Shown: positions 13,127 through 59,092, counted from the stretch's first letter. The stretch: DNA of 64,000 bases from an uncultured Verrucomicrobiae bacterium (GCA_963756875.1 CAVWPA010000001.1:64001-128000); one strand, 5' to 3'. Translations and numbers: made by a program. The notes: generated by a model from the letters alone, not told the origin.

Positions 13127-13201
13127 GTTACAACGTTAAAAAGGTTACATTGTTAAAATGCAGGCTACGCTCGCCCGATTTAACGTTGTAACGTTTTTAA
13201 C
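13127..13201. repeat. AT-rich inverted array of approx. 8-nt GTTA-headed units
   Basis: GTTACAACGTTAAA ... TTTAACGTTGTAAC arms. Confidence 0.75.
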
Positions 13202-13216
13202 AAATCACCTCTGGCC

Positions 13217-13372
13217 TCACACGTCCGGCTTGGTTTTGGGCAAGCCGACGACTTTTCGGCCTTCTTTCCACTGTCCGCGTTTCTTGAGCAGTTCGACGCG
13301 TTCGAAGCGCTTCAGAACGTTGCGCTTGGCGATGATGGTGCTGGCTCCTCTCAGGCTGCGATGTTGCGACAT
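13217..13372 (-). CDS. PVC-superphylum signature small basic protein (TIGR04137-like)
   Basis: Manual translation MSQHRSLRGASTIIAKRNVLKRFERVELLKKRGQWKEGRKVVGLPKTKPDV (51 aa) with RNVLKRFER and GLPK motifs; below ORF-track cutoff. Confidence 0.9.
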   Translation of the reverse strand: MSQHRSLRGASTIIAKRNVLKRFERVELLKKRGQWKEGRKVVGLPKTKPDV

Positions 13373-13460
13373 AAATACTTTAAAAGGTTGAAGCTGGACG
13401 CGGGAAATGAGCGGGCAAGCTACGCGGTTTTACCGGATTTTCAAACGCCGCGCAGCAGAT

Positions 13461-13560
13461 GTTAAAACGATAAAAAAGTTACAAGGTTAAATCGAGTTGC
13501 ATCGTGACAGGCGACAAGTCCCATGTCTTTTGTAACCCTTGTAACGATTTAACAATTCAA
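13461..13560. repeat. AT-rich inverted array of approx. 8-nt GTTA-headed units
   Basis: GTTAAAAC..GTTACAAGGTTAAATCG ... TGTAACCCTTGTAACGATTTAACAATTCAA. Confidence 0.7.
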
Positions 13561-13564
13561 AGAC

Positions 13565-15355
13565 TCAGAGCTGATTGCTCAATACCACGTACGTGCCGCA
13601 GGCGGTGACCTGGTGGTAAATATGGATCCGCTCGGTGAGCAGTTTTCGCCAATATGGGAGTCGGTCCTGTTCAACAATCAAAAAGACAGGATTGGAAGTC
13701 TTCCAACGCGCCAGCACTGCCTCGGCATCGACGTGTAACCGGTTTGCGCCGAGGCGTTCTGCAAACGGGTCCCGGGGTTGATTTACCAAGAACACCTTGC
13801 GATTAAGATAAAAGAGCAGACTGCTGCCGACATCGAGCGATCCTTCGTAGTAAACTCTTCCGCCCCGCCCGATCCGCCCGTTCAAGTACTTTGCAGCATC
13901 GGCGAGTGAAAAGAACGGCGCCACACGCGCCACGCCTTCGATCGAGCTGAGACCGACGGGAATCATCGCCGCAAGCAAAATGGTAATCCCGATCCGTTCG
14001 CGATTCTTGGCCACGAAGTAGAGTGCCAGCGCTGCGGCAGGAACGAGCGCGCTCGCCGAAAGCGCGACCATTGGCCGCAAGGTGAGCCATGTTGGGCCGG
14101 GGATCGTTGCAAGGGTTCGCCACGCCGTTGCGCGGTCGCTCAGTTCTTTCCACTGGGTAGTTGCGCCGCTCACGATTTCCGGCAGGAAAAGCGCGGCTGC
14201 GCCGGCGAGCAGCCCGATGATGGCCACGCAGCAGACACCCGCGAGGCGGAACCGGCGCGGCATTCGGTCCCATGCCGATGTCGCAAAAAGGCCGAACGCG
14301 CTCCACATGCTCATCGAGTAATAATCCTGGCGTTGTCCGAGTACGAGCAGAGGCACGAAAACAACACCGATCCAGCAGATAGGCAGTGCGTCCGCGAACT
14401 CGATTTCACGCGGCCGGATGATTTTGCGGGCGGCAAAAATCAAACCGGGAACAATGAGGAACGAGGCGGGAAACCACCACGCGAGATGCAACGCGAGAAA
14501 CTGGAACCGGGGAACGTTTACGTAGCTATGCGTCGCATCAGGCCGGCCAAGGAGGTGCGAAGCCGATTCCGCGCCGAACGCATACGAAAGGTAACCGGGG
14601 AAATGTCGCGCGATCCATATGTGCCACGGCGCAATGATTAATAAAAAGAGGAGAAAATATTCCCAGCGCAGCAGGGCGCGAAAACGGATCCGAGATTCGC
14701 GAAAAAAAACGGCAAGCAGCGCGCAGACCGCTGCGGGATAAGCCAGTCCATGAAAGCCTTTTGTCATACAGGCGAGCGCGGCGAAAATCCAGAAGCCGGC
14801 GAACCAGGCGCGGCGATGCGCGCGACGCTGATGGCCCGCGATCGCGCAAAAAATCGCCGCCACCACAAACGCGGCGAAGACCGGTTCGGGCATGATGATG
14901 CGGCCAAGCAAAAACATGCCATACGAGCAGAGGTAAATGAGCCCGGCGATAAAGCCGCGCCAATAATCCATCAATCGTTCGCCGATCAAAAACGTGAGCG
15001 CGACCGACGCGACCGCCGCCACGGCGATTGGCAGCCTCGCGGCCGCGGCGTTGATCCCGAACAATTTGAACGACAGGATGATCATCCAGTAAAGCAGCGG
15101 CGGTTTTTGAAGGCGCGGAATGCCGTCGTTGGTGGGAACCAGCCATTGATGGGCGGCAATCATTTCGCGCGCGGCGCCGGCGTATTGGCCGTCGGTTTCA
15201 CCGTAAAGCTGGCCCCAGCCCGCAGTACAGACGTGGAGCACCACGGCGAGCGCGATGAGGCACGCGAACAAAGCATGGCGCGTCGGCGGCGGCGCGAGCG
15301 CCTGCGGTTCGAGCAGGGTCTGTTCAATGCTGAACGTGCGGGTGCCGGCAACCAT
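13565..15355 (-). CDS. ArnT/PMT family (GT-C) glycosyltransferase
   Basis: [23 protein letters not shown] motifs, many TM segments; start uncertain (15355 or 15379). Confidence 0.88.
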
Positions 15356-15359
15356 GATT

Positions 15360-15809
15360 CTACAAATCTCCTCCGTCACCTGGGTCTGCCGGGCTGGCAG
15401 AGCGATACTTTTCCCAATCTGCCGGCAATCGCAGCAATTTTGCAGCGGGCATTTCGATGAGCGCCAGCATCTGCCGGCATTCCGCGATCAAGGCATTGTC
15501 TTGCGGCCGCAGAATGCGAAACGCGCACCAAAAACGCACCCTTTCGAGGCGGTCGAGCCACCCTTCAACCACCAGGCGGTCACCCAGTTTGGCCGCGCGC
15601 CGATAATCGATTTCTGTCCGTACCACCACCGGATATCTTTCTGTTTTAACCATCTCGGAGAGGGCAAGACCGAGTTTTTCGGCAAGCAAACTGCGGCCGA
15701 TCTCGATGAAGCGCAGGTAGGCGATGTTGTGCACGACCCCGCCGCAATCGGTATCGAAAAACATCACCTGCACGTCTGTGCGAATTCTGGGCGTCGCGGG
15801 GTCTGTCAT
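15360..15809 (-). CDS. Acyl-CoA thioesterase (4HBT/YbgC family)
   Basis: [18 protein letters not shown] motif. Confidence 0.88.
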
Positions 15810-15852
15810 GCGTTACAGAGTAGTCTTATCAATATTCCGTGGATGGCGTCGA

Positions 15853-17802
15853 CTACGAAGCTGGCCTTTCCAACATCGACAAGACGGAATCGACCACTTC
15901 CTGAACCCCGACAGCTTTCATGCAGCGAAAATCGATCGGGCACTGGCGCAGGAAACAGGGACTGCATTCCACCTGGTGTCGAAGAATGATGTGATCGTTT
16001 CCGAGCGGCCCAGTCAGGCGCGGTTCGGTCGAGCCGAAAATGGCTACGACCGGGATGCCGATCAACGCGGCAAGGTGCATCGTGCCGGTATCGTTCGTGA
16101 GCAGCAATCGGCAGGCTCGCAGCTCATCGATCAACTGTTCGAGCGATGTTTGCCCGATTCGATTTCTGCACTGATCGCTCAACGCAGCCGCGATTGTTTC
16201 GCCAACTGCCGCGTCGTTTTGTGTTCCGAATAAAACCCATTGCGCTCCTGTCCGCTCCGTAATTGCCGTCGCAGCCTCGGCGAAACGTTCCGGCAACCAT
16301 CGCTTCGCCGGTCCGTACTCCGCACCGGGACAAAGAGCGAGCTGCAGAGGGACGGCCCCTGTGCTGTCCGTGACAAGAGGGACGCGATCCGCCTTCGCGC
16401 TGCTTCGGCGTGACAGGCGGGCGTCCCTCCAATTGTCGTCGACTTTCGCGCCGCAATCTTGTGCCAGGCGCAGATAGCGAAGCGATTGATGTTGTGGCGG
16501 CCCCGGCTTTCGCGGTTCCCGCACGATTTGATTTAGCAGCCAGCTTCGGGAATGGCCGCGGTAACCGACTCGTCGCGGAATTCTGCTCAGCCAGACTTCC
16601 AGCGCTGAGCGGAGCGAGTTTGGAAAAACAATGACAACATCGAAGGGCGGCTGCCGCCGGATTGCGCGGATGGTGGCAAACAAAGACTTCCTGGTCAGGG
16701 GAACGATTTCATCCACTTCGGGAACCAGTTTCCACATTGGCGCAATTTTTTCCGGAGCCGCAACAGTGACGTGCGCGTCGGGGCGGCCGGTTTTGATGGC
16801 GCGAACGGCCGGAACGCTCATGACCGAGTCGCCAAGCCAATTACTGGCCCGAATTAAAATGCGAAATGGTTTCAGACTGTGGCTCCTGAATCCGGATGGC
16901 AAATACACGCCGCGCTTGTAGTGCGCGAGAAGAAAATTTGGTCGCGGAGTTTTCCATCGATTGTGCACCCAGAACCAGTCTTCCGGGGCGCGACGAATCT
17001 GACCGGCGATGAGGTCGTTCGATTTCGCGGTCAGCAATTCGACCGAGTCGCGGCTGTTCTCCAATGCCTCGATAACGATTCGCCACCGTGCGACGCCCGC
17101 CGTGTAAACGGCAACGCCGACGAGCGCGGCGCCGGTGCGCCTGGCCAAGAGCGCGGGCAGAGAAGTTGTTGACGCAAGTCTCCCAAAAAAAGGGACCCAG
17201 AGCCCCTGGTCGCCCGCATGTTGGTCGCTAAGAATTCCGATCGCGCCACCCGCGCGTAGCAGCTCGATCGGTTTTCGGAAACCTTCTTTGCGATCGAACA
17301 TCTCCACTCCAGCGCGGGCGCGCAGTTTGCGGACGTGATTATCGATCAAACGATTGCCCAACCGCTGATAGATCGTGCTGTTGCGGGTGTAACCGATGAA
17401 TTTCGGCAGGATTTGAGAGATGAGTTCCCAATTGCCGAGATGGCTCAAAATCAGAACAACGCCGCGTTTGGCCTGAAGATGTTGATGGATTGCCTGAAGA
17501 TTTTCGATGGCAACGTGGTGTTCGAGTTGCTCGAGCGGCATGATTGCAACCTTGACTCCCGACAAAAGATTCGCGCCGAGCCGTTGGAAGTGGCGCCGAA
17601 CGAGGCGCCGCAGTTCGCGCGGCGATTTTTCATCGCCGAATGCGATGGCCTCATTGTGCGAGGCGAGCCGGCGATAGCGCGGCAGGATTAACCAGGCGCC
17701 GAACCCGAGCAACTGGCCGAGGCGGAACAGCACGGGCAATGGGAGCGCTGTAATGACAATCACGCCTGCCCGGTAGAGAAGGTAAAGACAGAATTCGCGC
17801 AT
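15853..17802 (-). CDS. waaF: Fusion: lipid A late acyltransferase (LpxL/HtrB-like) + LPS heptosyltransferase II
   Basis: N-half HLGNWE, SDQ, PFFG, WFWVHNRWK; C-half NWLGDSVM, PGAEYGPAKRW, NDTGTMHLA. Confidence 0.9.
   Translation of the reverse strand: MREFCLYLLYRAGVIVITALPLPVLFRLGQLLGFGAWLILPRYRRLASHNEAIAFGDEKSPRELRRLVRRHFQRLGANLLSGVKVAIMPLEQLEHHVAIENLQAIHQHLQAKRGVVLILSHLGNWELISQILPKFIGYTRNSTIYQRLGNRLIDNHVRKLRARAGVEMFDRKEGFRKPIELLRAGGAIGILSDQHAGDQGLWVPFFGRLASTTSLPALLARRTGAALVGVAVYTAGVARWRIVIEALENSRDSVELLTAKSNDLIAGQIRRAPEDWFWVHNRWKTPRPNFLLAHYKRGVYLPSGFRSHSLKPFRILIRASNWLGDSVMSVPAVRAIKTGRPDAHVTVAAPEKIAPMWKLVPEVDEIVPLTRKSLFATIRAIRRQPPFDVVIVFPNSLRSALEVWLSRIPRRVGYRGHSRSWLLNQIVREPRKPGPPQHQSLRYLRLAQDCGAKVDDNWRDARLSRRSSAKADRVPLVTDSTGAVPLQLALCPGAEYGPAKRWLPERFAEAATAITERTGAQWVLFGTQNDAAVGETIAAALSDQCRNRIGQTSLEQLIDELRACRLLLTNDTGTMHLAALIGIPVVAIFGSTEPRLTGPLGNDHIILRHQVECSPCFLRQCPIDFRCMKAVGVQEVVDSVLSMLERPAS
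16345..16431. repeat. Nested GGAG-type palindromic element inside waaF reading frame
   Basis: Similar to intergenic element 62527..62616. Confidence 0.7.
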
Positions 17803-17957
17803 GCGGGAGCGAAAAAGATGACCGATGTCGCGCCACAGCGTAAAATTGCCTGCGCCGGGCTTCAATGAATATAATGTCCCCCTGTGACAACCCGCCAGAT
17901 CCTTCTCGCCAATGCATCCATTTTTCGTTAGGCAACTGAATTGCTACCGGGACTGAC

Positions 17958-18713: not shown

Positions 18714-18723
18714 ATTAATGCGA

Positions 18724-34174: not shown

Positions 34175-34322
34175 AGCCCGTTGAGGCGGGGATCTGATTC
34201 ATCGCTGCGTATTTTTATCGCGTCGCCAGTTGGCGGGCACGTTCCAGCGTATCGATCGAGGCAAAACGCGGCCGCGCAAAATTTCAGACCGCGGATTGCG
34301 CTGATAACTCACAGGTCGACCG

Positions 34323-34362
34323 GATCATGATCAAGAGCAGGAGCATGATTAAGAGCAGGAGG
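34323..34362. repeat. Hexamer tandem array (GATCAW/GAGCAN)
   Basis: GATCATGATCAAGAGCAGGAGCATGATTAAGAGCAGGAG. Confidence 0.65.
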
Positions 34363-34424
34363 AAGCGGTGGCGCCCGGTGGTGGCATTGACAGGGGAACC
34401 AATACCCAGTTTCATAACGTCCCG

Positions 34425-37647: not shown

Positions 37648-37699
37648 CTGCTACTTTGTTGTTCCGATCGCGGTTAAGGGACCTCCACTGTTAGAGTGT

Positions 37700-37837
37700 C
37701 GATCATGATCACGATCAAGAGATTCCGGGGAGCGCACGCGCCTCGCGTGCTGGTCTCGGCGCCTCGCCGAGACGAACTTTGCTTCGATCACGAGCACGAG
37801 CACGAGCACGAGCATGAGTAAGAGCAAGAGGAAGAGC
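37700..37837. repeat. Hexamer arrays (GATCAY, GAGCAC) enclosing a GC-rich double-hairpin element
   Basis: CGATCATGATCACGATCAA; GCACGCGCCTCGCGTGC and TCTCGGCGCCTCGCCGAGA hairpins; (GAGCAC)n. Confidence 0.7.
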
Positions 37838-37845
37838 TGAGCGAG

Positions 37846-38997: not shown

Positions 38998-39016
38998 TCC
39001 GCGACCGCGGTCGCGG

Positions 39017-39197
39017 AAGTTCCAAATTCCAAGCACCAACCTCCAAAGAAACAACAAGCACCAAATTTCAAAAGAGGTGATTCGTAGTTGAAGTTTGGGA
39101 TTTGGAGCTTCACTGGGGTTTGGTGCTTGGAACTTGGTGCTTCCGCCGCAGGCGGTTCGTATTTCTTTGGTGCTTGGATGTTGGAGCTTGGAGCTTC
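39017..39197. repeat. Inverted heptamer array (AAGCWCC / GGWGCTT type)
   Basis: Left arm CCAA-periodic, right arm TTGG-periodic with 7-nt period. Confidence 0.8.
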
Positions 39198-39207
39198 TTA
39201 ATTAAGC

Positions 39208-40068: not shown

Positions 40069-40178
40069 GGGGCGTGGAATGGAGCCGCTGGGGAAGCGGC
40101 GACATAGATTGCAAGACCCGAGGGGCGAGGGTGAGCGAGCGGGAGGCGAGCGAATCAAACTCGCCGCGATTCTGGATT

Positions 40179-40213
40179 CGGCGTTGAGCGTTGGGCGTTG
40201 GACGTTGGACGTT
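40179..40213. repeat. Heptamer array (NNNCGTT)x5, single arm
   Basis: CGGCGTT GAGCGTT GGGCGTT GGACGTT GGACGTT. Confidence 0.75.
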
Positions 40214-40492
40214 GTTTGCCCATTGTCCAAAAAAGTGGGAGGGCCTGAAGCCCCGACTTTCCCTGGTAGGGGACGCGGCTCGCTTCCGCGGCTCGCTTGC
40301 GAAGGCGGGGCGTCAGACTTGCTCGGGCTGTCGAGCCGGGCAGAATTCCGTAGGAATCCCGTCACGGCTGAATGTCAAAGAAAGCCGGGCAAAATACTGC
40401 AGAAAAGGATTGACTTTTTCCGCGGAACTCCTCAACCTCGGAATCTTCACGGGTAAGGGAAAACAACGGAAAACAGTAATAATTGTAAGCTT

Positions 40493-43194: not shown

Positions 43195-43279
43195 CGCGCC
43201 ACTTTATGCACAAATCGTCCGAGTGTTCACAACGAAAAATGGCAAGGGGTAATTGGGCGGCATCGGTGATAGCGTGGCG

Positions 43280-43565
43280 AAGTTCCAAATCCCAACCACC
43301 GGCCGCCTTCGGCGGAAGCGCCAAATCCCAAGCTCCAAACCCCAGGGAAACTTCAAATCCCAAGCTCCAAAATTCAAAAGAGAGGTAGGGACGCCGTCCG
43401 GCAGCCGCCGGAGCCGGCCGATCGGCGCAGCGCGCCGACCCTACCAGACGGAGGCCAATTCCCAACGCCGAATTAAAAGAGACGCGGCACCCGGACAGCT
43501 CCCTGGGTTTTGAAGGTTGAATCTTGGAGCTTCCCTGGTGCTTGGAGGTTGGAGCTTGGTGCTTC
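43280..43565. repeat. Inverted heptamer array enclosing a GGTAGGG...CCCTACC element (43384..43445)
   Basis: Same heptamer units as 39017 and 44034. Confidence 0.78.
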
Positions 43566-43597
43566 GCGCCTGGGTTTGATGCTCCGGGTAGGCGCGT

Positions 43598-43939: not shown

Positions 43940-44033
43940 AAAGCTGCCCCTCGAATGTTACTTTGGCTCCGATAACGGGGCCGATATCTTCAGCGCGCGG
44001 GCGAAAAAATCAAATGAAACATGGAGGGGCAGC

Positions 44034-44166
44034 AAGCACCAAGTTCCAAGCACCAAATCCCAAGGAAGCTCCAAGCATCAAGCTTCAAATGAAGTGTTCG
44101 CGATCTCCCATTGTTGTTTGAAGATTGAAGTTTCCCTGGAGCTTGGATGTTGGAGCTTGGGGTTTC
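44034..44166. repeat. Inverted heptamer array
   Basis: AAGCACC AAGTTCC AAGCACC AAATCCC ... GGAGCTT GGATGTT GGAGCTT GGGGTTT. Confidence 0.8.
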
Positions 44167-44252: not shown

Positions 44253-44326
44253 GCGCCCGTAGCTCAACTGGATAGAGCGTCGGCCTCCGGAGCCGAAGGT
44301 TGTGGGTTCGACCCCCGCCGGGCGCA
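44253..44326 (+). tRNA. tRNA-Arg(CCG), CCA not encoded
   Basis: Acceptor GCGCCCG/CGGGCGC, D-arm AGCTCAACTGGATAGAGC, anticodon arm TCGGC-CTCCGGA-GCCGA, GGTTCGA T-loop. Confidence 0.95.
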
Positions 44327-46483: not shown

Positions 46484-47877
46484 TCACAGCTCGATGGCGT
46501 AACGCTTCATTTTGTTATAAAGCGTCGGCCGCCCAATTCCGAGAAGCCGTGCCGCCTTCTTCTTGTTGCCGTGGCATCGCGCGAGCGCTTGCAAAATGGT
46601 CGCGCGCTCAACGTCATCGAGACTTAGCGCTCCATGCCACGGCTCAGTGCCACGCTCACTTTGTTGCAGCACCATTGGCAATTGCACTTCGGCCGGAAGT
46701 TCCTTTACGCCGATGAGATCTTGACGCGCCAACACGACTGCGTATTCCATCGCGTTTTGCAGCTCACGCACGTTGCCGGGCCACGTGTAGTCGAGCAGCT
46801 TTTCGAAAGCATCGGGCGCAATCGCCGGCTCCCGCTTTCCTAGTTGCTGCGCGAATTGTTTTACGAAAGAGGCGATGAGCGGCGGAATATCCTGCTTCCT
46901 ATCACGAAGCGGCGGTACTTCGATCTGAAATGTGTTCAGCCGGTAATACAAATCCGGACGCAAGCGCTTTTCGGCTAACGCTTGAGCAATCGGTCGATTC
47001 GTCGCTGCGATCACGCGGAAATCAACTTTCAGCGTTTCTGTGCTTCCAAGTGGTCGGTATTCACGTTCCTGCAGCACACGGAGAAAACGTGTCTGCAGTT
47101 CGATCGGCATATCAGAGATTTCGTCCAGAAACAGGGTGCTCCCTCCTGCCTCACCAATCATTCCGGTGAAATCGTTGGTCGCGCCGGTGAAAGCACCTTT
47201 TACGTACCGAAAAGCTCTCCTTCGATCATGGCTTGCGGAAACGCCGCGCAATTGAGTTTTACCATCGGCTTGGCCGCGCGGCGGCTGCGATGGTGAATCA
47301 TATTGGCAATCACTTCTTTGCCCACACCACTCTCGCCTGTGATGAGCACATTCGCTTCGGAAGGTGCCATGGCGTTGATTAACTCTTCGATTTCCTGCAT
47401 CGGCTTGCTTTTGAAGACTGGAGTAAGCCGCGTCTCGGCAATCTCGAGACGCTTCTCCAACTGCGCCGTCTTTTCTCGAAGTTCCGCCGTCTCGCGAAGC
47501 AATGTCTGTTTTTCCAACGCTTTCTCGACCAGACTGAGCAATTCCTCCGGAGCGTATGGTTTGCTGATGAAATGATAAGCACCGCGCTTGATCGATTCGA
47601 TCGCGTTGCTCAAAGAATCGTGCGCCGTCAGAATGATGACCGGCGTTTCTGGATGCTCGCTTTTGATTTGGTCGAGCATTTGGAATCCTTCTGCGTCAGG
47701 TAGTTGCAAATCGAGTAACACCAAGTCGGGCGATTTATTCTTCAATGCGCGCAAGCCTGTGGTCGCAGTTGCGGCCGTCTCCGTTTGATAACCGTGTCTG
47801 CCCAGAAGCGCCTCGAGTGTGAGAAGGATCGATCGCTGGTCGTCAACAATCAGGATTCGACGATTCTCCGTCATCAT
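46484..47877 (-). pseudogene. NtrC-family sigma54-dependent response regulator, 1-nt frameshift near 47205
   Basis: REC + GESGVGKE in one frame; GAFTGA, LDEI, WPGNVREL, HTH in another; GGTAC where GGT TAC expected. Confidence 0.85.
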
Positions 47878-49633: not shown

Positions 49634-51181
49634 TCAGGCGAGCAGATCGTAGCCGCGGCTTCCGGATATTCTTCGGCGCACGAATTCGCCCACGGGCGCC
49701 GCTTCTGACAGAACGACGCGCGCATCGACGTCCGGCGCGTCCGCTTCGGTCCGCGCAATAAGCGGTTGGTCTACCAGTAACTTCAATTCGCAGCCAATCT
49801 TTGCGGAGGCAATTTCGTGCGCGATCTTTTGCTGAAGGGACATCGCGGCCCGGTACCGGGCGTTTTTCGTTTTCGCGGGAACCTGCTCCTCCATCTTCGC
49901 GGCGCGCGAGCCCTCTTCCCGGGAATACTTGAAAATACCGAGTCGTTCGAATCGCGTACGCTCGATAAAATCCATGAGCGTTTCGAATTGCCGGTCTGTT
50001 TCTCCCGGGAAACCAGCGATAAACGTCGTGCGCAACGCCACGCCCGGAATTCCCGCGCGCAATCTGTCGATCAGATTCTCGATGTGTTCTCGCGACGTTT
50101 CCCGGCGCATTTGCGCCAGCATCGTTTCGTCGATGTGCTGAAGCGGGATATCGATGTAACGGGCGACCTTGTCGCATTGCGCGACGGTCTCGATTAATTC
50201 GTCGCTCCAGTGCGCCGGATGAGTGTAAAGAAGCCGCACCCAAAATTCGCCGTCGATCTCCTGTATTTCACGCAACAGTCCGGCAAGGGTCGGGCCACGC
50301 GAAGAATCGACCGCCTGCCGTGGCCCCGCCTTCTCGCTCCACAAGTCCATTCCGTAGTAGGTTGTATCCTGGCTGATCAAATTAATTTCGCGCACGCCTT
50401 CGGCGACGAGCCCGCGGAGTTCCGCCAGCACGGACTCGGGCGAACGGGAGCGATGTTTCCCGCGCATTTGCGGAATCACGCAAAAACTGCACGGATGATT
50501 GCACCCCTCGGCGATTTTTAGATAAGCCGAGTGAGCGGGCGTAAGTCGAAACCGCGGCGTATCGTAATCGGGAATGTAATGGGGACGCGCGGTGACAAAA
50601 TCAAGAGGGCTCTGTTCATCGTGCGAAATAGAAGAAACGCCGAACGTCCAACGCCCAACGTCCAACGCCGAAGTCTGATTCGGCCCGGCGTTGCCTGCGT
50701 TGGGCGTTGGGCGTTCGACGTTGAGCGTTCGGCGTTTGCTTATGATTTTCTCAACAATCGCTCCCAATTCGCTCACCTGGTCCAGCCCGATAAAGGCATC
50801 TACCTCCGGCAGAGCTTCGCGCAATTCCCGCGCAAAGCGCTGCGACATGCAGCCGCTGACGATCAATTTTTGTTCCGGCCGCTTTTGCAGGCCGCGACGT
50901 TGATGCGCTTCAAGGATCGCGTTGATCGATTCTTCCTTGGCGGAATCGATAAACGCACAAGTGTTCACCACCAGAACGTCGGCTTCCTCCGCGCTCGAAG
51001 TGATTTGCATTCCTCGCTGCAACACACTTCCCAGCATGATCTCCGCGTCGACCAGGTTCTTCGCGCAGCCGAGGCTGATCATGCCGACCTTCGGCGGCTT
51101 TGGTGGCAGGCGTGTCGCCTGTTTCCATTCGGGGTTCGCAGCCGACACGGCTGCCTCTACAGAAGAATCATCTTCGCGCAT
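49634..51181 (-). CDS. rimO: Ribosomal protein S12 methylthiotransferase, with two repeat-derived insertions
   Basis: SLGCAKNLVD, NTCAFI, KIAEGCNHPCSFC, APDVD. Confidence 0.95.
   Translation of the reverse strand: MREDDSSVEAAVSAANPEWKQATRLPPKPPKVGMISLGCAKNLVDAEIMLGSVLQRGMQITSSAEEADVLVVNTCAFIDSAKEESINAILEAHQRRGLQKRPEQKLIVSGCMSQRFARELREALPEVDAFIGLDQVSELGAIVEKIISKRRTLNVERPTPNAGNAGPNQTSALDVGRWTFGVSSISHDEQSPLDFVTARPHYIPDYDTPRFRLTPAHSAYLKIAEGCNHPCSFCVIPQMRGKHRSRSPESVLAELRGLVAEGVREINLISQDTTYYGMDLWSEKAGPRQAVDSSRGPTLAGLLREIQEIDGEFWVRLLYTHPAHWSDELIETVAQCDKVARYIDIPLQHIDETMLAQMRRETSREHIENLIDRLRAGIPGVALRTTFIAGFPGETDRQFETLMDFIERTRFERLGIFKYSREEGSRAAKMEEQVPAKTKNARYRAAMSLQQKIAHEIASAKIGCELKLLVDQPLIARTEADAPDVDARVVLSEAAPVGEFVRRRISGSRGYDLLA
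50635..50737. repeat. Inverted heptamer array (AACGYCS) inside rimO
   Basis: Five AACGYCS units, spacer, then complementary units. Confidence 0.85.
51099..51161. repeat. Family-A REP doublet in rimO N-terminus
   Basis: GGCAGGCGTGTCGCCTG ... GCAGCCGACACGGCTGCCTCTACA. Confidence 0.88.
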
Positions 51182-52174: not shown

Positions 52175-54643
52175 CTAAACGGCGGCGTCAAGATCTACCA
52201 GAATCTCGCGCGGCTTTGCACCTTCGCCGGGACCCAAAATACCGCGCTGCTCGAGAATATCAACGATGCGCGCCGCGCGTGTGTAGCCGAGACGAAGCCG
52301 GCGCTGCAACAATGAGGTGGATGCGCGCTTTTCCTGGCGGATGATTTCGAGACATTTTTCCACAAGCTCTTCGTCTTCGTCGCTCACCTCCTCTGCGGGC
52401 GCCGCAGTGGATTCCAGTTTTTCATGCATGGTCGGGTCGAAAGCGGGGCGGCCCTGCCCGGAAACAAATTCTACGAGGCGCCGGATCTCTTCGTCGGTCA
52501 CCAGGACGCCTTGAGCGCGGGTCAATCGCGAAGCGCTCGGCGGAAGATAAAGCATGTCTCCCTGGCCTAACAAACGGTCCGCGCCGTTCTCATCGAGAAT
52601 CACCCGGCTATCGATCTTGCTCGCGACCTGAAAGGCAATCCGGCTTGGAATGTTGGCTTTGATCACGCCGGTGATGACGTCGGCCCGCGGCGTTTGAGTG
52701 GCGACAATCAAATGAATGCCGGCCGCGCGCGCCATTTGCGTGATCCGCGCAATCGCGCTCTCCACATCGGCCGGCGCCGTTTGCATCAAATCGGCCAGCT
52801 CGTCGATGACGACGACGAAATAAGGTAATTTGTCCGGGATCGGAATTTCAGCTTTTTCCGCTTCTGTAGTGGCAGCCGTGTCGGCTGCGTTTGAAGATTT
52901 TGCAGGCGACACGCCTGCCTCTACAGCATCAGCGTCATGCTTCTTTTTCACTGGTCGCCCGTTAAAACCAATGATGTTACGGACTCCAACCCGCGCGAAA
53001 AGTTTATAGCGCCGCTCCATTTCATCGATGAGCCAGCGCAAGGCGAGCAGCACTTTTTTGGGATCGGTCACGACGGGGAAGGCCAGATGAGGCAGCGAAT
53101 TGTAAAGCTGCATCTCCACAACTTTGGGATCGATCATGATAAAACGCAGTTCTTCCGGTGTGAAACGGAAGAGCATGCTGGCGATGAGCGCGTTGATGCA
53201 GACGCTTTTGCCGCTGCCAGTCGTCCCGGCGACCAGTAAATGCGGCATTTGTCCCAGATCGGTGATGATGGCCTTGCCGTACACGTCTTTGCCCAGAGCG
53301 AGCGGGATTCGCGCGTGCGTTCTCGCTTCCTCCCAGTCCGGCGATTCCAACAGTTCCCGCAGCGTGACAGTCACTTTGCGCGTGTTCGCGAGCTCGATTC
53401 CCACCGTGTCCTTACCCGGGATCGGCGCGAGAATGTTGATCCGCTCAGCGCGAGTGGCCCGGGCCAGGTCGCGTTCGAGGCTGACGATTTTGTCCACCCG
53501 AACCCCCTTGGCCGGATAGACTTCGTAGCGCGTAATTGTCGGTCCTTTGGTAATGTCGCCCGCTGCGACCGCAATTCCGAATTGGCCGAGCGTTTCAATC
53601 AAAGTCTGCTGAACGCGTTGCAGCTCTGCCGGGTCGGCTCCGCCGCGCCCTTCGGGATCGTGTTCGGCGAGCAGGTCGAGCCCGGGGAGCGTGTAAGTTT
53701 TCGGGTCCCAGACCCGGCTCGTTAGGCCAGGCGTCGCCACCGCTCTTTTCCCGCCGCCGCGCAACTCGGCGAGCGACGGTTTCCTGCGTGGCGTCGCTGC
53801 GTCGCTTGGCAGCGCAGTGGTATCGACCACTTTCGGTTTCGGGCGATCGGCCAGTTCTTCAGGCGAAATGAATGTGGCTGCCGGTTCGGGCACCGCGGCA
53901 CCCTTTTTCTTTAATCGTTTCTCAAGCTGGCGGCTTTGCTTTGCCAGCTCCTTTTGGCTGATCTCGAGCTGGCCTTTAAGATCCGATTTTCGCAGTTGCC
54001 GATGCAAACGCCATTCGTGCAATTTGGCGAAGGCCGCGCGTGTGCCCAATACCGTTTGCCTGACCAGATAAATCGGCCGCAGCCCGGTCATAAGAATTAA
54101 CGTTGCAACGTAAACACCGGCGAGAAGAATGAGCGATCCGACTTTGCCCATGGAGCTGAGCAGCAGCGTTTTTCCAAAAAAGTAGCCGATCCAGCCGCCG
54201 GGACCGGGGATATTGAAAGCTGCTTTCCAACCCAGGAGATGGCGTGTCTGCAATTGCAACAGGCAGGCCCCGGACGCGATGAACAAAACCATCCACGGGA
54301 GGCGCCGCGTCACGCGTAAACTCGGGTGGAACAGTTTTGCGGCGCCGAAACCGAGCAGGATCGCCGCGAGCAAGTACGACGCGGCACCAATCATGAAGTA
54401 GCAAATACTTGCCAGGATTGCGCCGAACGGTCCGATGAAGTTCTGGGCCGGCCAGTTGGGCGGGGAGAGATAGCTCCACGGCACCCAGGACGGAAGATCC
54501 TTTGGATTGTACGAAACCAGCGCGAGAAAAGTTACAGTTCCGACGACAAGCAGAATGAGAGCGAAGACTTCGTTCCAGGCGTTGCTTTTTTTTGCGCTGC
54601 GTGCCACCGGCCAAGATAGTAATCCCGTGCTCGCGCCTTTCAA
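52175..54643 (-). CDS. ftsK: DNA translocase FtsK, with repeat-derived insertion
   Basis: 4TM N-terminus, GTTGSGKS, IDELAD, ATQTP, gamma domain LQRRLRLGY. Confidence 0.96.
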   Translation of the reverse strand: MKGASTGLLSWPVARSAKKSNAWNEVFALILLVVGTVTFLALVSYNPKDLPSWVPWSYLSPPNWPAQNFIGPFGAILASICYFMIGAASYLLAAILLGFGAAKLFHPSLRVTRRLPWMVLFIASGACLLQLQTRHLLGWKAAFNIPGPGGWIGYFFGKTLLLSSMGKVGSLILLAGVYVATLILMTGLRPIYLVRQTVLGTRAAFAKLHEWRLHRQLRKSDLKGQLEISQKELAKQSRQLEKRLKKKGAAVPEPAATFISPEELADRPKPKVVDTTALPSDAATPRRKPSLAELRGGGKRAVATPGLTSRVWDPKTYTLPGLDLLAEHDPEGRGGADPAELQRVQQTLIETLGQFGIAVAAGDITKGPTITRYEVYPAKGVRVDKIVSLERDLARATRAERINILAPIPGKDTVGIELANTRKVTVTLRELLESPDWEEARTHARIPLALGKDVYGKAIITDLGQMPHLLVAGTTGSGKSVCINALIASMLFRFTPEELRFIMIDPKVVEMQLYNSLPHLAFPVVTDPKKVLLALRWLIDEMERRYKLFARVGVRNIIGFNGRPVKKKHDADAVEAGVSPAKSSNAADTAATTEAEKAEIPIPDKLPYFVVVIDELADLMQTAPADVESAIARITQMARAAGIHLIVATQTPRADVITGVIKANIPSRIAFQVASKIDSRVILDENGADRLLGQGDMLYLPPSASRLTRAQGVLVTDEEIRRLVEFVSGQGRPAFDPTMHEKLESTAAPAEEVSDEDEELVEKCLEIIRQEKRASTSLLQRRLRLGYTRAARIVDILEQRGILGPGEGAKPREILVDLDAAV
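52865..52925. repeat. Family-A REP doublet inside ftsK
   Basis: TGTAGTGGCAGCCGTGTCGGCTGC-N13-GCAGGCGACACGCCTGCCTCTACA. Confidence 0.9.
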
Positions 54644-54657
54644 TCCCTCTTACGAGT

Positions 54658-54805
54658 TACTCCTGCTCTTGCTCGTGATCGAACCCGCAATTGGATCAGA
54701 GTCGCGCTCCTGCTCCTGCTCATGATCATGCTCCTGCTCCTGATCGATCAGCGGAATTCGATCAGGATCATGAGCAGGATCAGGATCATGATGAGGACCA
54801 GGAGT
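54658..54805. repeat. Inverted hexamer array (CTGCTC/ATGATC vs GATCAG/GAGCAG)
   Basis: 6-nt periodic arms around GATCAGCGGAATTCGATC. Confidence 0.78.
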
Positions 54806-54862
54806 CCGCTGCGCTTTCGCCTTGCGTTACCGGCTGCTCGCCCGTTAGTCTCCCTGCGCACT

Positions 54863-55090: not shown

Positions 55091-55111
55091 GACCGTTAGG
55101 CAAATAAGAAC

Positions 55112-56608
55112 ATGGCCAAAGCTCAATACCTGACTACGCCGCCGAAGATCGCCACCATGCCGCCCGGCGTGCCGTACATCGTTGGGAACGAGGCCGCAGA
55201 ACGATTTTCGTATTACGGGATGAATTCCGTCCTGACCATTTTCATGACCACCTATCTCGTAAACAAGGTGGGTCATCTGGATGTAATGGCCCCGGCAAGA
55301 GCCGAAGCGTGGTATCACACTTTTGTTACATCGCTTTACCTGCTGCCAATTCTCGGCGCGGTTCTCGCCGATGCGATCTTCGGCAAATTCTGGGTCGTGT
55401 TTTGGCTGTCGATCGTTTACTGCGGGGGACATCTCACCCTGGCTCTGATGGGTTCCTCGGTCGCGCACGCGATTGAGCCGCGCTATCTTCTCGCGATCGG
55501 TCTTCTCTTGATCGCGCTCGGCGCCGGCGGAATTAAACCCTGCGTTTCAACAAACGTCGGCGATCAGTTCGGCGAATCGAACAAGCACTTACTGACTCGG
55601 GTGTTTAACTGGTTTTATTTTTCCATCAACGCCGGGTCCGCCATTTCGACGTTGCTCATTCCATGGCTCCTGGCGCCGGCAAGCGGGCTTCCAAACTGGC
55701 TCACGAATTTGTTGCCGACTTCCGTCTCAAATTTCCTGGTGAGTCCGCAACTGCACAGCCCGGACTTCGCATTTGGCCTTCCGGGCGTTTTCATGGCCAT
55801 CGCCACGGTCATTTTCTGGATGGGACGCAAGAAATTTGTCCATATCCCGCCAGTTGGGCTGCGACCGTACGGACGCGAGATTTTCAGCAAGGAAACATTC
55901 AAGATCCTGCTCAACATTTTGCTGCCTGTCCCGTTTATGGCCATGTTTTGGGCTTTATGGCAGCAGAATTTTTCCTCATGGATCGTTCAAGCGCAGTCAA
56001 TGGATCGACATCTCTTCGGGATTAACTGGCTGTCGTCGCAAATCCAGACCGTTAATCCGATTTTCATTCTGGTCATGCTGCCGCTCTTTTCCTATTTCCT
56101 TTATCCCGCCGTCGAGAAGCTGATTCCGCTGAGTCCGCTGCGGAAGATGGGCGCCGGATTATTTGTCGCTGCGGCATCGTTTTTTTTGGTGGCGATGATT
56201 CAAACGCGCATTGACGGCGGCGCGCGACCCAGCATCATCTGGCAGATTTGGGCGTTTGTGATCTTAACGGCCTCTGAAACGCTGGCCTCGCCGACTCACC
56301 TTGAGTTCTCCTACACGCAAGGACCAGTCAAGCTCAAGTCGCTTTGCATGTGTACCTATTTGCTCGCGATCTCACTCGGGAATGCTTTCACCGCCGGAGT
56401 CAATTTCTTCATCGAAAATCCGGACGGATCCGTGAAGCTGCAGGGAGCGAGTTACTTTATGTTCTTTTTCTGGATCATGCTGGGAACGGCGGTGCTGTTT
56501 GCCATCGTGACGCCGTTTTACAAGGGCCGGACGTATCTGCAGGATCAAACGAAGGTTACCGGTGACGCGGAGCCGGCGGTGGGATTTGCGGTTCAACCGG
56601 AGTCATAG
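55112..56608 (+). CDS. POT/PTR2 family proton-dependent oligopeptide transporter
   Basis: EAAERFSYYG, GGIKPCVS, FYFSINAGS. Confidence 0.93.
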   Translation: MAKAQYLTTPPKIATMPPGVPYIVGNEAAERFSYYGMNSVLTIFMTTYLVNKVGHLDVMAPARAEAWYHTFVTSLYLLPILGAVLADAIFGKFWVVFWLSIVYCGGHLTLALMGSSVAHAIEPRYLLAIGLLLIALGAGGIKPCVSTNVGDQFGESNKHLLTRVFNWFYFSINAGSAISTLLIPWLLAPASGLPNWLTNLLPTSVSNFLVSPQLHSPDFAFGLPGVFMAIATVIFWMGRKKFVHIPPVGLRPYGREIFSKETFKILLNILLPVPFMAMFWALWQQNFSSWIVQAQSMDRHLFGINWLSSQIQTVNPIFILVMLPLFSYFLYPAVEKLIPLSPLRKMGAGLFVAAASFFLVAMIQTRIDGGARPSIIWQIWAFVILTASETLASPTHLEFSYTQGPVKLKSLCMCTYLLAISLGNAFTAGVNFFIENPDGSVKLQGASYFMFFFWIMLGTAVLFAIVTPFYKGRTYLQDQTKVTGDAEPAVGFAVQPES

Positions 56609-56615
56609 CATCAAA

Positions 56616-58349
56616 ATGAAAAGAACGGTTCTCGCAGCGATGCTTTTTGTGCTGCTATCGATCCCCGTGGCCAACGCGAATCCCAAGGACGACGCGTTCG
56701 AGAAAATCGCCAGGGATTATGTGGAAGGGTATCTCGCCGAGCATCCCGAACGGGCCACCGAGCTTGGCGACCATCGTTTTGACGATCAACTGAGCGATTA
56801 CTCGGCCGCCACGCGAACCCGGCAGCTGGCCCGGGCAAAACAGTTTCGCGAAGAGCTAAAAAAATTCGACGATTACACTCAGCTAACGGGCCCGAATCGG
56901 GTGGATGTCCGCATCCTGCGCGACAACGTCGATAACGAAATCTTCCAGTTGGAAGAGTTGAAGGAACCCGATTGGAACCCATTGGTTTACACTCAGAGCC
57001 TCGCCGACAGCCTTTATCTCATTGTCGCACGCGAATTCGACACGCCGGAAAATCGCATTCCGAACCTGCGCAAACGCATGGAAGCGATCCCGCTTGTGAT
57101 CGAGGAAGCCGAGAAAAATCTGCAGCATCCGCCGCGTATCCACACGGAGACGGCGATCGAACAGACCGAAGGCGCAATCAAACTGGTGCGCGAGGGGCTC
57201 TCACCGCTTCTGGATCGGGCGCCGCAAATGAAGAAAGATCTCGCGCCGGTCCAGGAAAAAACAGCGAAGGCGTTGGAGGCCTACAAGAAGTGGTTGCAAA
57301 ACGATCTGCTTAAACGTTCCGACGGCAACTTCCGCCTCGGCGCTGAGAAGTACCGTAAGAAATTGCATTTCGCGCTCGCCTCGGACCTGTCGATGGAAGA
57401 AATCATGAAACGGGCGCAAACCGATCTGCATCAAACGCAGGACGCTCTTTATGAAACGGCGCTTCCGCTTTACAAAAAATATTTTCCGAAGGCCGATCAG
57501 GCAGCGCTCAACGACAAAAAGAAAGTCACGACTGCGGTCTTGAACAAGCTGGCCGAGCAGCGCCCGGACGACAACACGATCGTCGGGTTCTGCCAGAAGG
57601 TGGTCAGCGAGGCGACTAATTTTGTAAAGTCACACAACCTTGTCACCGTCCCGAACACACCGCTCGATGTGATTATCATGCCCGAATTCAAGCGGGGCGC
57701 GGCGGTTGCGTATTGCGACGCCGCGGGGCCGCTTGAGAAGCACGGCAAGACGTTTTTCGCCGTGGCGCCGACGCCTGACGATTGGTCGAAGGAACGAAAG
57801 GAATCTTTTTTCCGCGAATATAACAATTACATGATCCGCGATCTTACGGTGCACGAGGCGATGCCCGGGCATTATCTCCAGCTTGCTCATGCCAACGAGT
57901 TTCACGCTCCGACCCTGGTGCGCGCGATTTTCGAGAGCGGCACGTTCATCGAAGGCTGGGCGGTTTACTGCGAGCAGATGATGGCCCAGCAGGGCTATGG
58001 CGGACCCGATGTGAAAATGCAGCAGCTAAAGATGCGGCTGCGCGTCGATTGCAACGCCATTCTCGATCAGAGTATCCACGCTGGAAACATGACCGAAAAG
58101 GAAGCAATGGATTTAATGATGAAGGAAGGATACCAGCAGGAGGGCGAGGCGGTTGCGAAATGGAAACGCGCCCAGCTCACCTCCGCGCAGCTCTCCACCT
58201 ACTTTGTCGGAGTGAGCGAGCATCTCGATCTCCGCGCGGCTGCGGAAAAGAAGCTGGGCAAGGATTTCGATCTGGAGAAGTACAACGACCAGGTGATTTC
58301 ATACGGCAGCCCGCCGGTAAAATACGTCCGCGAATTGATGGGGCTGTGA
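56616..58349 (+). CDS. DUF885 family secreted protein (putative metallopeptidase)
   Basis: Signal peptide; HEAMPGH and EGWAVY motifs. Confidence 0.88.
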   Translation: MKRTVLAAMLFVLLSIPVANANPKDDAFEKIARDYVEGYLAEHPERATELGDHRFDDQLSDYSAATRTRQLARAKQFREELKKFDDYTQLTGPNRVDVRILRDNVDNEIFQLEELKEPDWNPLVYTQSLADSLYLIVAREFDTPENRIPNLRKRMEAIPLVIEEAEKNLQHPPRIHTETAIEQTEGAIKLVREGLSPLLDRAPQMKKDLAPVQEKTAKALEAYKKWLQNDLLKRSDGNFRLGAEKYRKKLHFALASDLSMEEIMKRAQTDLHQTQDALYETALPLYKKYFPKADQAALNDKKKVTTAVLNKLAEQRPDDNTIVGFCQKVVSEATNFVKSHNLVTVPNTPLDVIIMPEFKRGAAVAYCDAAGPLEKHGKTFFAVAPTPDDWSKERKESFFREYNNYMIRDLTVHEAMPGHYLQLAHANEFHAPTLVRAIFESGTFIEGWAVYCEQMMAQQGYGGPDVKMQQLKMRLRVDCNAILDQSIHAGNMTEKEAMDLMMKEGYQQEGEAVAKWKRAQLTSAQLSTYFVGVSEHLDLRAAAEKKLGKDFDLEKYNDQVISYGSPPVKYVRELMGL

Positions 58350-58350
58350 G

Positions 58351-58386
58351 ATTGTAGGGCGTTCGCCGCGGCGAACGCCCTACAAT
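58351..58386. repeat. Perfect 36-bp GTAG-headed palindrome
   Basis: ATTGTAGGGCGTTCGCCGCGGCGAACGCCCTACAAT. Confidence 0.85.
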
Positions 58387-58397
58387 TTGATCGTATC

Positions 58398-59036
58398 ATG
58401 CCGAACCTGGTCACATGGCTGCGCGAGAAGGACGTGAAATGGTTTCAACCGTTTTTCGCAAAGCACCCCGGCCTTCGCATTTGCAACGTCCGGGAAAATA
58501 CCGTGGTCCTGGAAGAAATGGAGGGCTTGCTTTTGACCGGAGGCTCCGATATCGCTCCGGAATTTCTTCGGCAGGAGGTTGTTGATCCCGGCGTGCTTGA
58601 GAAAGATGTCGACCCGGAACGGGACCGCTGGGAATTCGAAGCCCTCGAGCTGGCGATCGCGCAGGGGATCCCGATCCTGGCTATTTGCAAAGGCCTGCAG
58701 GTTCTTAATGTAGCGCTCGGCGGCACGCTCAAACTCGACATTCAAGGCCACAACCTGCCGGAACAAAAAGAGCGCGACATCCAGCCGCTGCGGCACGATG
58801 TCCGGGCGCAGCATCGGTTTGAGAAAGTGAACAGCCTGCATCATCAGGCGATTGACCGGTTGGGCAACGAGCTGGAGATCGAAGCCTGGTGCGCCGCCGA
58901 CGATATCATCGAACAGGTCCGGCTGCGCGATCATCCGTTTGCCGTGGGAGTGCAATATCATCCGGAACGCGGAAAGATTTACGACGGACTATTCGAGGAT
59001 TTCTTTTCGCATGTAAGAAATCTGTTGAATCGTTAG
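58398..59036 (+). CDS. Peptidase C26 / gamma-glutamyl hydrolase (PuuD-like, class I GATase)
   Basis: TGGSD, ICKGLQ, NSLHHQA, VQYHPE. Confidence 0.88.
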   Translation: MPNLVTWLREKDVKWFQPFFAKHPGLRICNVRENTVVLEEMEGLLLTGGSDIAPEFLRQEVVDPGVLEKDVDPERDRWEFEALELAIAQGIPILAICKGLQVLNVALGGTLKLDIQGHNLPEQKERDIQPLRHDVRAQHRFEKVNSLHHQAIDRLGNELEIEAWCAADDIIEQVRLRDHPFAVGVQYHPERGKIYDGLFEDFFSHVRNLLNR

Positions 59037-59092
59037 ACTCGAAAGACGGAACCATGTAACCATATAACGGTTTAACGAATCACGTTTCTGTC

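Follow-up and report, generated by a model that had tools for sequence, protein, structure and literature searches.

The DNA considered here is a 64,000-nucleotide stretch from the genome of an uncultured Verrucomicrobiae bacterium (C1:64001-128000 of genome G000), referred to as the window, within which positions are counted from the first nucleotide. It contains degenerate tandem arrays with units of 6, 7 or 8 nt, most of which are followed by their own reverse complement. The evidence leans slightly toward viewing these arrays as selfish hairpin repeats in many unit families, akin to the intervening sequences (IVS) of bacterial rRNA.

G000, from a soil Verrucomicrobia bacterium, comprises 2.69 Mb in 3 contigs with a G+C content of 56.8%, and the comparison set consists of 41 genomes of its family. 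The nearest matches to the DnaJ protein of G000 (at most 85% at the protein level) come from Verrucomicrobiota metagenome-assembled genomes labelled Chthoniobacterales, Spartobacteria or Candidatus Udaeobacter. The closest genomes all belong to other genera of the one family and are at most 79% identical in dnaJ DNA, so that base-by-base alignment of spacers is impossible. Loci L097 and L129 (both G007), L102 (G002) and L141 (G014) are from unpublished genomes.

Periodic arrays in the window

Arrays with AAGCWCC-type heptads are situated between genes. The first hairpin occupies the dnaJ-rsmE spacer (39017..39142) and was recognized by sequence, motif scan and folding; the predicted RNA fold of 39010-39142 reaches -58.2 kcal/mol, as compared with -33.3 +/- 3.2 for shuffled sequences (z -7.9). 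An extra single arm of this family with GGWGCTT units lies on the minus strand at 39164..39199, as seen by Tandem Repeats Finder (TRF) and in the sequence. Another hairpin, between rnhB and rplS (43279..43566), has its centre motifs 197 nt apart and contains nested inserts in the loop and left arm, including a palindrome at ~43386-43447 that resembles repetitive extragenic palindromic (REP) elements. The hairpin detected by motif scan between rplS and a tRNA gene (44253-44326) covers 44029..44160 and folds weakly (44025-44166, z -2.25), 4 of 200 shuffles being as good.

The AACGYCS heptads form a single minus-strand arm at 40177..40218 (GGCGTTG units on the plus strand; TRF, sequence) and a hairpin at 50635..50738. 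The hairpin, for which 50630-50742 folds with z -8.3, is not intergenic; it is located in frame inside rimO (49634-51181, minus strand; Pfam, TIGR01125, fold). We also note a dispersed element of ~82 nt at 40077-40158, directly upstream of the single AACGYCS arm, with copies of 79-87% identity in G000 (C1:682653), G008, G013, G015 and G017.

The hexamer arrays have GAKCAN units. A single plus-strand arm at 34322..34366, upstream of a same-strand open reading frame (ORF), was found by TRF and in the genome scan (C1:98317-98364). In the grpE-dnaJ spacer, a short plus-strand arm read from the sequence (37701..37722) and a longer one before dnaJ (37786..37839, plus strand; TRF, genome scan, dnaJ by Pfam) enclose a nested REP-like double hairpin of ~57-61 nt (37723..37783), which belongs to a separate dispersed family with copies elsewhere and whose hairpins appear in the RNA fold. 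The longer arm ends 6 nt before the dnaJ ATG (37846), and its purine-rich end, GAGGAAGAG, is placed where a ribosome-binding site is expected. Because the two arms are direct rather than inverted, no long hairpin forms at 37690-37838 (z -0.3); thus the hexamer array anticipated at 37700-37837 is present, while its inverted-hairpin architecture is not. Directly upstream of ftsK (52175-54643, minus strand; Pfam), a GAKCAN arm in sense orientation (54657..54686, minus strand) stands next to a hexamer hairpin whose first arm is of the NTGMTC type and whose second is of the GAKCAN type (54698..54807; TRF, genome scan, fold). The fold of 54700-54808 has an energy of -58.4 kcal/mol, with -38.0 +/- 3.7 in shuffles (z -5.6).

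GTTA-type hairpins flank a minus-strand gene for a small basic protein of 51 aa (13217..13372; TIGR04137 of NCBIfam, E 2.7e-27, 94.4 bits at a cut-off of 50), one on either side within 13124-13556. The hairpin downstream of the gene (13124..13210) is built from 8-9-nt units (GGTTACAAC/GTTAAAAA), the TRF period of 17 corresponding to two units, and 13122-13212 folds at -30.6 kcal/mol with shuffles at -14.6 +/- 3.1 (z -5.2). The second hairpin (13460..13556) is weaker: for 13458-13560 the z value is -2.9, and 1 of 200 shuffles is equal or better. A plus-strand single arm at 59050..59080 has 8-nt units (AACCATGT, AACCATAT, AACGGTTT, AACGAATC; TRF, sequence).

Inspection of the sequence at every predicted site confirmed the degenerate 6-, 7- and 8-nt arrays, and TRF reports a period of 6, 7, 8, 14, 17 or 18 at most of them. 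The proposed shared architecture of inverted arrays applies to most sites, where the array is paired with its reverse complement; those at 34322, 40177 and 59050 are single arms. REP-like elements are enclosed by arrays, as had been suggested, at 37723-37783 and ~43386-43447. The word "graded", which had been applied to the set, overstates the order, since the 6-, 7- and 8-nt types are separate families. A CRISPR array, in which identical repeats alternate with unique, similarly long spacers, was rejected for all window sites, in keeping with the original prediction, as the units abut without spacers; the statement that simple slippage does not account for the arrays was also upheld. At gathering thresholds, Rfam finds only tRNA in the whole window and no described RNA family over the arrays.

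Elsewhere in the window, a hexamer array of CCAACA type with ~35 units (periods 6, 18 and 24) lies within a crude ORF at 7250-7461; it is probably a coding low-complexity repeat outside the hairpin families. A sigma-54 activator appears split over two overlapping minus-strand ORFs (46484-47877), of which 47200-47877 carries the receiver domain and AAA positions 4-73, and 46484-47251 carries AAA positions 71-168 and HTH_8. This may reflect a frameshifted or broken gene, or else an error in sequencing.

Genome-wide periodicity and arm pairing

A self-match segment was defined as a stretch in which at least 17 of 21 positions equal the base one period further on. G000 contains 173 such segments of period 7, 56 of period 6 and 13 of period 8, as compared with 0, 1 and 1 in a Markov-1 shuffle control, and a chance origin of the periodic arrays is excluded genome-wide. 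TRF likewise finds period 7 to be the commonest (430 rows, 161 distinct unit types), followed by period 9 (287 rows). Most of the length of 110 of the 173 period-7 segments is outside crude ORFs, which take up 82% of the genome.

Pairing of arms was assessed with a position-specific scoring matrix (PSSM) for each array, the cut for accepting a partner being set at the 99th percentile seen with random segments. Of the 173 period-7 arrays, 52 are accompanied within 200 nt by an inverted partner and 17 by a direct one; among the period-8 arrays, 7 of 13 have an inverted partner. Pairing thus far exceeds chance, contrary to one of the outcomes that would have refuted the original prediction. An earlier partner test by local alignment (+2/-3), which gave 31/173, was too strict for degenerate arms and was replaced by the PSSM test. 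The period-7 counts are lower bounds because the detector misses degenerate copies such as those at 39017 and 44034.

Families, internal plan and conservation

Words of the AAGCWCC type form 55 clusters in G000, 17 of which are single arms. The polarity of the clusters is uniform: an A-rich arm precedes a T-rich arm in 37 and the reverse order occurs in 0, the AATGACG clusters are distributed 17 versus 0, and every hexamer hairpin that was read (7 in G000, 7 in relatives) places the NTGMTC arm first. In 28 anchored copies, the AAGCWCC elements follow a common plan of ~3 heptads, the centre CCAGRGAA, ~3 further heptads, a loop, TTCYCTGG and the mirror image of the first half. The centre-to-centre distance is 70-93 nt in 25 of the 28, and the remaining copies hold nested inserts. 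An analogous centre, GAAGGAA/TTCCTTC, is present in AATGACG elements. Since inversion cannot flip the polarity of an inverted repeat, the uniform polarity together with the shared centre points to common descent from founders rather than independent local origins. A common unit formula, NNN-S-S-A-A, was also considered; it fits the four largest families, AAGCWCC, AACGYCS, AATGACG and AATCCGC, fails with ACAGAGG, AAGGGGT, GTGACNA and the hexamers, and was abandoned. Judged by eye, many AAGCWCC elements are immediately adjoined at one end by a short GC-rich hairpin (39143-39157, C2:148805, C2:152373, C1:454030), which may be a real terminator or an insertion landmark.

Copies in the family genomes were counted with a 22-position arm motif, one mismatch being allowed; the reversed pattern served as a control and gave 0-1. 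For the AAGCWCC arm motif, G000 has 86 occurrences (44 forward, 42 reverse), G033 has 94, G047 has 33 and G012 has 10, with 1-7 in 15 further genomes and 0 in 22 of the 41. This distribution is patchy and burst-like, as in amplified repeats.

These observations bear on an account in which simple repeats are born in place by slippage that favours 7 nt, with snap-back or template switching generating the inverted arm and no movement being involved. The 161 distinct period-7 unit types are in accord with it, as are the different units found in the same rimO linker (G000/G009, G025 and G023) and in the dnaJ spacers of different genomes. The variable triplets of AAGCWCC arms also resemble a shuffled small set of unit variants, and both the excess of heptamers and the idea of slippage are already in print (in the available text of PMC4679880 and PMC4692102). 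However, slippage with random snap-back predicts both polarities, in contrast to the 37:0 and 17:0 ratios and the fixed order of the hexamer hairpins. Nor does it predict that one family should recur, with its non-repetitive centre and its unit number unchanged, at over 40 loci, or that copy numbers should range from 0 to 94 among genera. We regard local birth as an unlikely origin of the elements; slippage within existing arrays very probably adds to their variability.

The arms are conserved at particular positions, and their pairing is not. Within the 28 anchored copies, a left arm and the reverse-complemented right arm of the same copy agree at 0.661 of positions, as against 0.667 when the right arm is taken from another copy; when G-U pairs are admitted, the values are 0.737 and 0.744, respectively. 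In a permutation test, 1455 of 2000 permutations reach the observed value for own-arm pairing, and no compensatory base change between arms was found among these copies. Conservation of at least 85% is seen at 29 of 60 arm positions, which comprise the CCAA cores and the centre. The other 31 positions look saturated, with an identity of 0.416 within a copy and 0.431 between copies. Two possibilities agree with this pattern: some factor may recognise the cores, or a small set of unit variants that share the core may be constantly reshuffled.

The first of these possibilities leads to an explanation of the arrays as DNA or RNA binding sites for a sequence-specific protein, such as the PF05635 pentamer or a nucleoid protein, which would read 4-nt cores at 7-nt spacing in opposed orientations. 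The conserved CCAA/TTGG cores and CCAGRGAA/TTCYCTGG centre, with free positions between them, agree with such a role, as do the lack of maintained pairing and the occurrence of PF05635 genes between arms of this kind (see below). It is opposed by the wide differences in units among families and genomes, which one protein cannot read, and by the presence of only 3 PF05635 genes in G000, none with the arms of an abundant family. We consider it very improbable that the arrays are explained primarily in this way.

Placement among genes and turnover at orthologous sites

The period-7 loci fall in 60 tandem, 17 divergent and 13 convergent spacers, against a background of 903, 285 and 254, all of these being based on crude gene calls made with a simple ORF model. 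On reading the window sites, no T-run was visible behind the stems, although no dedicated terminator scan was made. Corresponding sites in relatives are empty or filled with other units, which contradicts conservation as ordinary terminators at orthologous positions, the outcome that had been named as fatal to the original prediction. Intrinsic termination was accordingly rejected on three counts: no T-runs seen, divergent spacers not depleted, and orthologous sites empty or differently filled.

The dnaJ neighbourhood was displayed for 25 related loci. L020 and L056 have no dnaJ-rsmE spacer, the stop codon directly adjoining the following start; elsewhere, the spacer is short and plain or contains hairpins of different unit families. 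In the grpE-dnaJ spacer, a hexamer hairpin (NTGMTC, then GAKCAN) is present in 7 of the 25 (L005, L019, L028, L029, L035, L044, L054), with the GAKCAN arm toward the dnaJ start in every case read, and GTGA-type heptad hairpins are present in L001, L010, L031 and L063; the rest have other small repeats or none. The hexamer element thus has some positional persistence at this site. In addition, an element of the form GTCATTCCGAGCG-N-AGTCGAGGAATC is repeated in the dnaJ spacers of L002, L010, L011, L016 and L064 and represents another of the dispersed repeat families in these bacteria. Across G000, 11 GAKCAN arms end 2-21 nt before called same-strand start codons; these starts follow the longest-ORF rule, which is open to bias from TAA-containing arrays, and that of dnaJ is secure from Pfam.

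The arrays could alternatively be RNA stems that serve the host, by punctuating operons through RNase III, protecting transcript ends or terminating transcription in both directions. Five of the seven folded window sites are far better than shuffles (four with z -5.2 to -8.3 and one with -2.9), and the persistence of hexamer hairpins in the grpE-dnaJ spacers of relatives, beside the variant in G000, is what such a function would give. The GAKCAN arms near start codons and the gap-pgk cassettes described below count in the same direction, and IVS stems in rRNA are known to be excised by RNase III, according to the part of PMC4990558 available. Against this stand the absence of compensatory change noted above, the empty orthologous sites and undepleted divergent spacers, the copies within coding sequence, and the lack of any noticed T-run. 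Such a function is distinctly unlikely to explain the arrays as a whole.

Copies in frame inside genes

The ORF at 49634-51181 is identified as RimO by TIGR01125 (456.6 bits, cut-off 356.95), and its UPF0004, Radical_SAM and TRAM domains span residues 31-132, 223-406 and 462-515, respectively. The AACGYCS hairpin contributes ~35 residues to the linker between the UPF0004 and radical SAM domains. This segment is missing in 8 of 13 relatives (L096-L103). In other genera, the same linker contains an AACGYCS-like hairpin (G009), AGTGCTC heptads (G025) or GCCATCC heptads (G023); L093 has a longer, non-periodic linker, and L104 is interrupted and not judgeable.

The intragenic set consists of 19 confident ORFs with a period-7 array no closer than 240 nt to the 5' end and no closer than 150 nt to the 3' end. 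Pfam domains flank or span the array in 12 of them, where it is in frame: rimO, an hpnH-like radical SAM/DUF3463 gene, tgt, metH, thiC (two sites), uvrC, uvrA, dxr, aconitase, uvrB, thrS and ubiD. The other 7 ORFs may be over-extended or fused. Comparison with solved structures reveals the extent of the added peptides: 36 residues in Dxr versus 14 in 4zn6, 31 in Tgt versus 7 in the best-matching solved chain, and, in ThiC, 37 versus 0 in 3epm and 47 versus 15.

The metH gene (C2:23183-27799, minus strand, L112) is one open frame of 1538 aa. Between its homocysteine and pterin domains there is a complete in-frame unit consisting of a REP-like element, a Y1 transposase resembling REP-associated tyrosine transposases (RAYT), an inverted REP-like element and AATCCGC heptads. 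Y1_Tnp of Pfam covers residues 406-501 of MetH, and the in-frame fusion of a transposase into an essential enzyme is unusual.

PF05635 genes and the 23S rRNA

An association with four-helix-bundle (TIGR02436/PF05635) genes, raised as a check in the original prediction, was borne out: inverted periodic arms bracket all three such genes in G000 and 24 of 30 loci in the family. PF05635 is named for the 23S rRNA intervening-sequence protein and has the IVS protein S23p among its members. Ten ACAGAGG units and a degenerate CCTCTGT array enclose the gene at C1:688011-688328, and those at C1:485635-485943 and C3:103913-104221 are each enclosed by one NTGMTC arm and one GAKCAN arm. The last-named cassette is situated in the gap-pgk spacer, where cassettes with hexamer arms are found in G000, G036 and G018. 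PF05635 genes are present in 34 of the 41 family genomes, with up to 14 per genome. The 30 loci are the best match per genome, G000 included; 230 nt upstream was compared with the reverse complement of 260 nt downstream, and inverted flanks were scored at z of at least 6 against shuffles. Six loci, L129 and L141 among them, are below this threshold. The arms are mostly heptads (GTGACNA, GTTGAGA, CTTTAAG, GTTGATG, CAGAGGG), some being octamers or hexamers. In a comparison with XCC0516 (PDB 2GSC), the G000 protein matches with E 1.5e-7. XCC0516 is a pentameric four-helix-bundle S23p protein; its family has been related in a review to Avd of diversity-generating retroelements (PMC10053308).

The single 23S rRNA gene of G000 (C1:202042-205086) has an insert of 155 nt in place of a 2-position hairpin loop of the Rfam model, after model position ~1763. 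The insert is a gene-less hairpin of the AAGCWCC family, 147-155 nt long, that replaces the loop of a helix, which we take to be helix 63, a variable helix. Other heptad hairpins occupy the same place in G008 and G012, and G017 has a 95-nt insert there; 8 of 11 relatives have no insert of at least 15 nt. In the 23S rRNA of G012 there is also, near position 580, a hairpin of 103 nt with octamer units (GTTGAAGC-type). A match of the G000 insert to MIR2646 (26.6 bits, gathering score 245) was dismissed as noise.

REP-like guests and RAYT genes

REP/RAYT systems (also REPINs) are short, dispersed intergenic palindromes in which gene-carrying and gene-less forms coexist. The REP-like inserts of the window (37723-37783, ~43386-43447) constitute a system distinct from the arrays, and the 37723-37783 type flanks RAYT-like Y1 transposase genes. 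Its copies in G000, G001, G004, G007, G008, G015, G016 and G017 are 88-96% identical. This identity of the ~57-nt element is maintained across genera with dnaJ only ~76-79% identical, and the element is either very mobile or strongly constrained.

PF01797 (Y1 transposase) has six matches in G000, five stand-alone and one inside metH. The stand-alone genes are flanked by sequences of their own, with classical GTAG-type or GC-rich palindromes at three of the five; the metH copy is flanked by the REP-like 57-nt element and has a single heptad array next to it. At none of the six genes do heptad arrays make up the inverted flanks, so the membership of these arrays in REP/RAYT was rejected. Since RAYT genes are flanked by other repeats, RAYT was also discarded as the mobilising enzyme of the heptad arrays. 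Unlike in REP/RAYT, the heptad arms are not tied to Y1-transposase genes, and the REP-like elements are separate nested guests. We also note tandem arrays of ~130-nt and ~100-nt units with GTAG-type REP palindromes at C2:27890-28505 and in the flanks of C3:12137, one of which surrounds a RAYT-like gene.

Relation to described repeats

In the cyanobacterial short tandemly repeated repetitive (STRR) sequences, several dispersed intergenic tandem heptamers reportedly occur in one genome with no function known (attributed to Mazel et al. 1990). The present arrays have inverted arms, a link to PF05635 and intragenic copies, none of which is known to have been described for STRR. The Calothrix heptamers (STRR) are cited in PMC4692102. 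According to that paper, each Xanthomonas genome has 70-75 pairs of GGGAATC arrays that are inverted and convergent, with potential stem-loops, and Nostoc PCC 7120 has GGGGAYT arrays (Rehm et al. 2015, PMC4692102). Like these, the arrays of G000 are degenerate 7-nt tandem repeats, mostly intergenic and paired in inverted orientation, and their length and sequence vary among related genomes (PMC4692102, in part). In contrast, there are many unit families here, a conserved non-repetitive centre in one of them, and copies in rRNA, in genes and around PF05635. Because there are many unit families rather than one G-rich unit, G-quadruplexes are not a common theme. The terms 's23' and 'xcc0516' are absent from the main text of PMC4692102. 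An excess of heptamers in bacteria was connected with polymerase slippage by Mrazek et al. 2007, as summarised in the available text of PMC4679880.

Classic IVS of Coxiella, Leptospira and Xanthomonas are stem-loops that replace helix tetraloops, are excised by RNase III, occur sporadically and are thought to be selfish (PMC4990558, in the part available). The present elements share with them complementary termini around a PF05635 gene, the replacement of a 23S helix loop by a long stem-loop, and sporadic occurrence. Unlike rRNA IVS, most copies are outside rRNA and gene-less. The stems are also periodic with many mismatches, in contrast to the nearly perfect 28-bp duplex of the Coxiella IVS given in the same portion of PMC4990558.

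Rickettsia palindromic elements (RPE), as portrayed in the accessible part of PMC10969869, are ~150 bp long, lie in frame in unrelated housekeeping genes, are translated and encode a conserved peptide. The resemblance is one of behaviour only, the arrays being in frame in 12 of 19 ORFs with the reading frame open. The sequence and phylum are unrelated, the arrays here are heptads, and that part of PMC10969869 describes no link of RPE to PF05635 or rRNA. The TAACTGA heptamers of marine Beggiatoaceae have a single unit, are almost only direct repeats and lie within a few nt of start codons (PMC4679880, same text). The GAKCAN arms before the dnaJ, ftsK and pgk starts are similar in position; they differ in being hexamers and usually one half of a hairpin. 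Among the open-access papers searched, none connects hairpins of heptamer repeats with PF05635 or IVS, and none reports them in Verrucomicrobia. The original prediction of a poorly characterised class therefore needs qualification: structured dispersed elements are indeed present, and heptamer arrays and IVS are both already in print (PMC4692102 and PMC4990558, each as available).

Proposed nature of the elements

The interpretation of the arrays as selfish, IVS-like hairpin repeats, which would make them a variant with many families of the heptamer repeats known from Xanthomonas and cyanobacteria, can be formulated as follows. An element consists of two inverted arms, each of ~3-10 degenerate 6-8-nt units (mostly 7), around a loop. 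Full-size elements carry a PF05635 four-helix-bundle gene in the loop, and most copies are gene-less. Families have expanded in some lineages only, and their copies persist at places that tolerate an extra hairpin: spacers of every gene orientation, a 23S helix loop and, in frame, surface linkers of housekeeping proteins. By analogy with classic IVS, transcribed copies may be double-stranded RNA stems open to cutting by RNase III. Co-option of some copies is probable, an example being the purine-rich GAKCAN arms that stand as far from start codons as a ribosome-binding site would. A sequence-specific factor may read the conserved 4-nt cores, which are spaced 7 nt apart and for which base pairing alone does not seem to account.

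Several points weigh against this interpretation. The abundant AAGCWCC, AACGYCS and AATGACG families have no arm-matched PF05635 cassette in G000, and PF05635 is not known to carry an enzymatic motif. About 60% of the detected period-7 arrays have no partner in the PSSM test, and some copies, such as 44025-44166, barely beat shuffles in folding. Recent AAGCWCC copies are absent: the mean identity is 0.666 and the maximum 0.817, no pair reaching 0.85. Since neutral decay would not give position-specific conservation, a function at the level of the host or the element is possible. The spacer-type comparison depends on the crude gene calls. Considered as miniature inverted-repeat transposable elements (MITE), the elements possess inverted arms, and no parent transposase gene was found; no target-site duplication was recognised in the displayed flanks, the relatives being too distant for exact junctions.

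A broader and more speculative proposal, which we regard as doubtful, is that periodic-arm hairpins and PF05635 (Avd-like) genes make up one widespread, unrecognised class of element. It would include gene-carrying (autonomous) and gene-less (dependent) forms, as do insertion sequences (IS) and MITE, or RAYT and REP. The arms would be written or maintained by templated repeat-adding or register-slipping synthesis with the four-helix-bundle protein, as Avd acts with a reverse transcriptase. If true, rRNA intervening sequences would be only the best-known landing site of the class, and templated synthesis would explain together why the period is 6-8 nt, why conserved cores stand next to free positions and why different units recur at the same sites.

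Biological significance

Heptamer repeats, described in cyanobacteria, Xanthomonas and others since 1990, and rRNA IVS, described at about the same time, are both unexplained and have been studied apart. Here, both come together in one system, an element family that occurs between genes, in 23S rRNA and, as a presumably translated part, in a dozen essential enzymes; the gene for the IVS protein is likewise enclosed by arms built to this design. On the practical side, ORF calls are inflated and predicted genes fused or lengthened by the elements, which probably also disrupt the assembly of short reads. Should the link to PF05635 extend to other phyla, the large PF05635 family would acquire a role, a common kind of intergenic DNA in soil bacteria would be explained, and a route would be provided by which proteins gain new surface loops.

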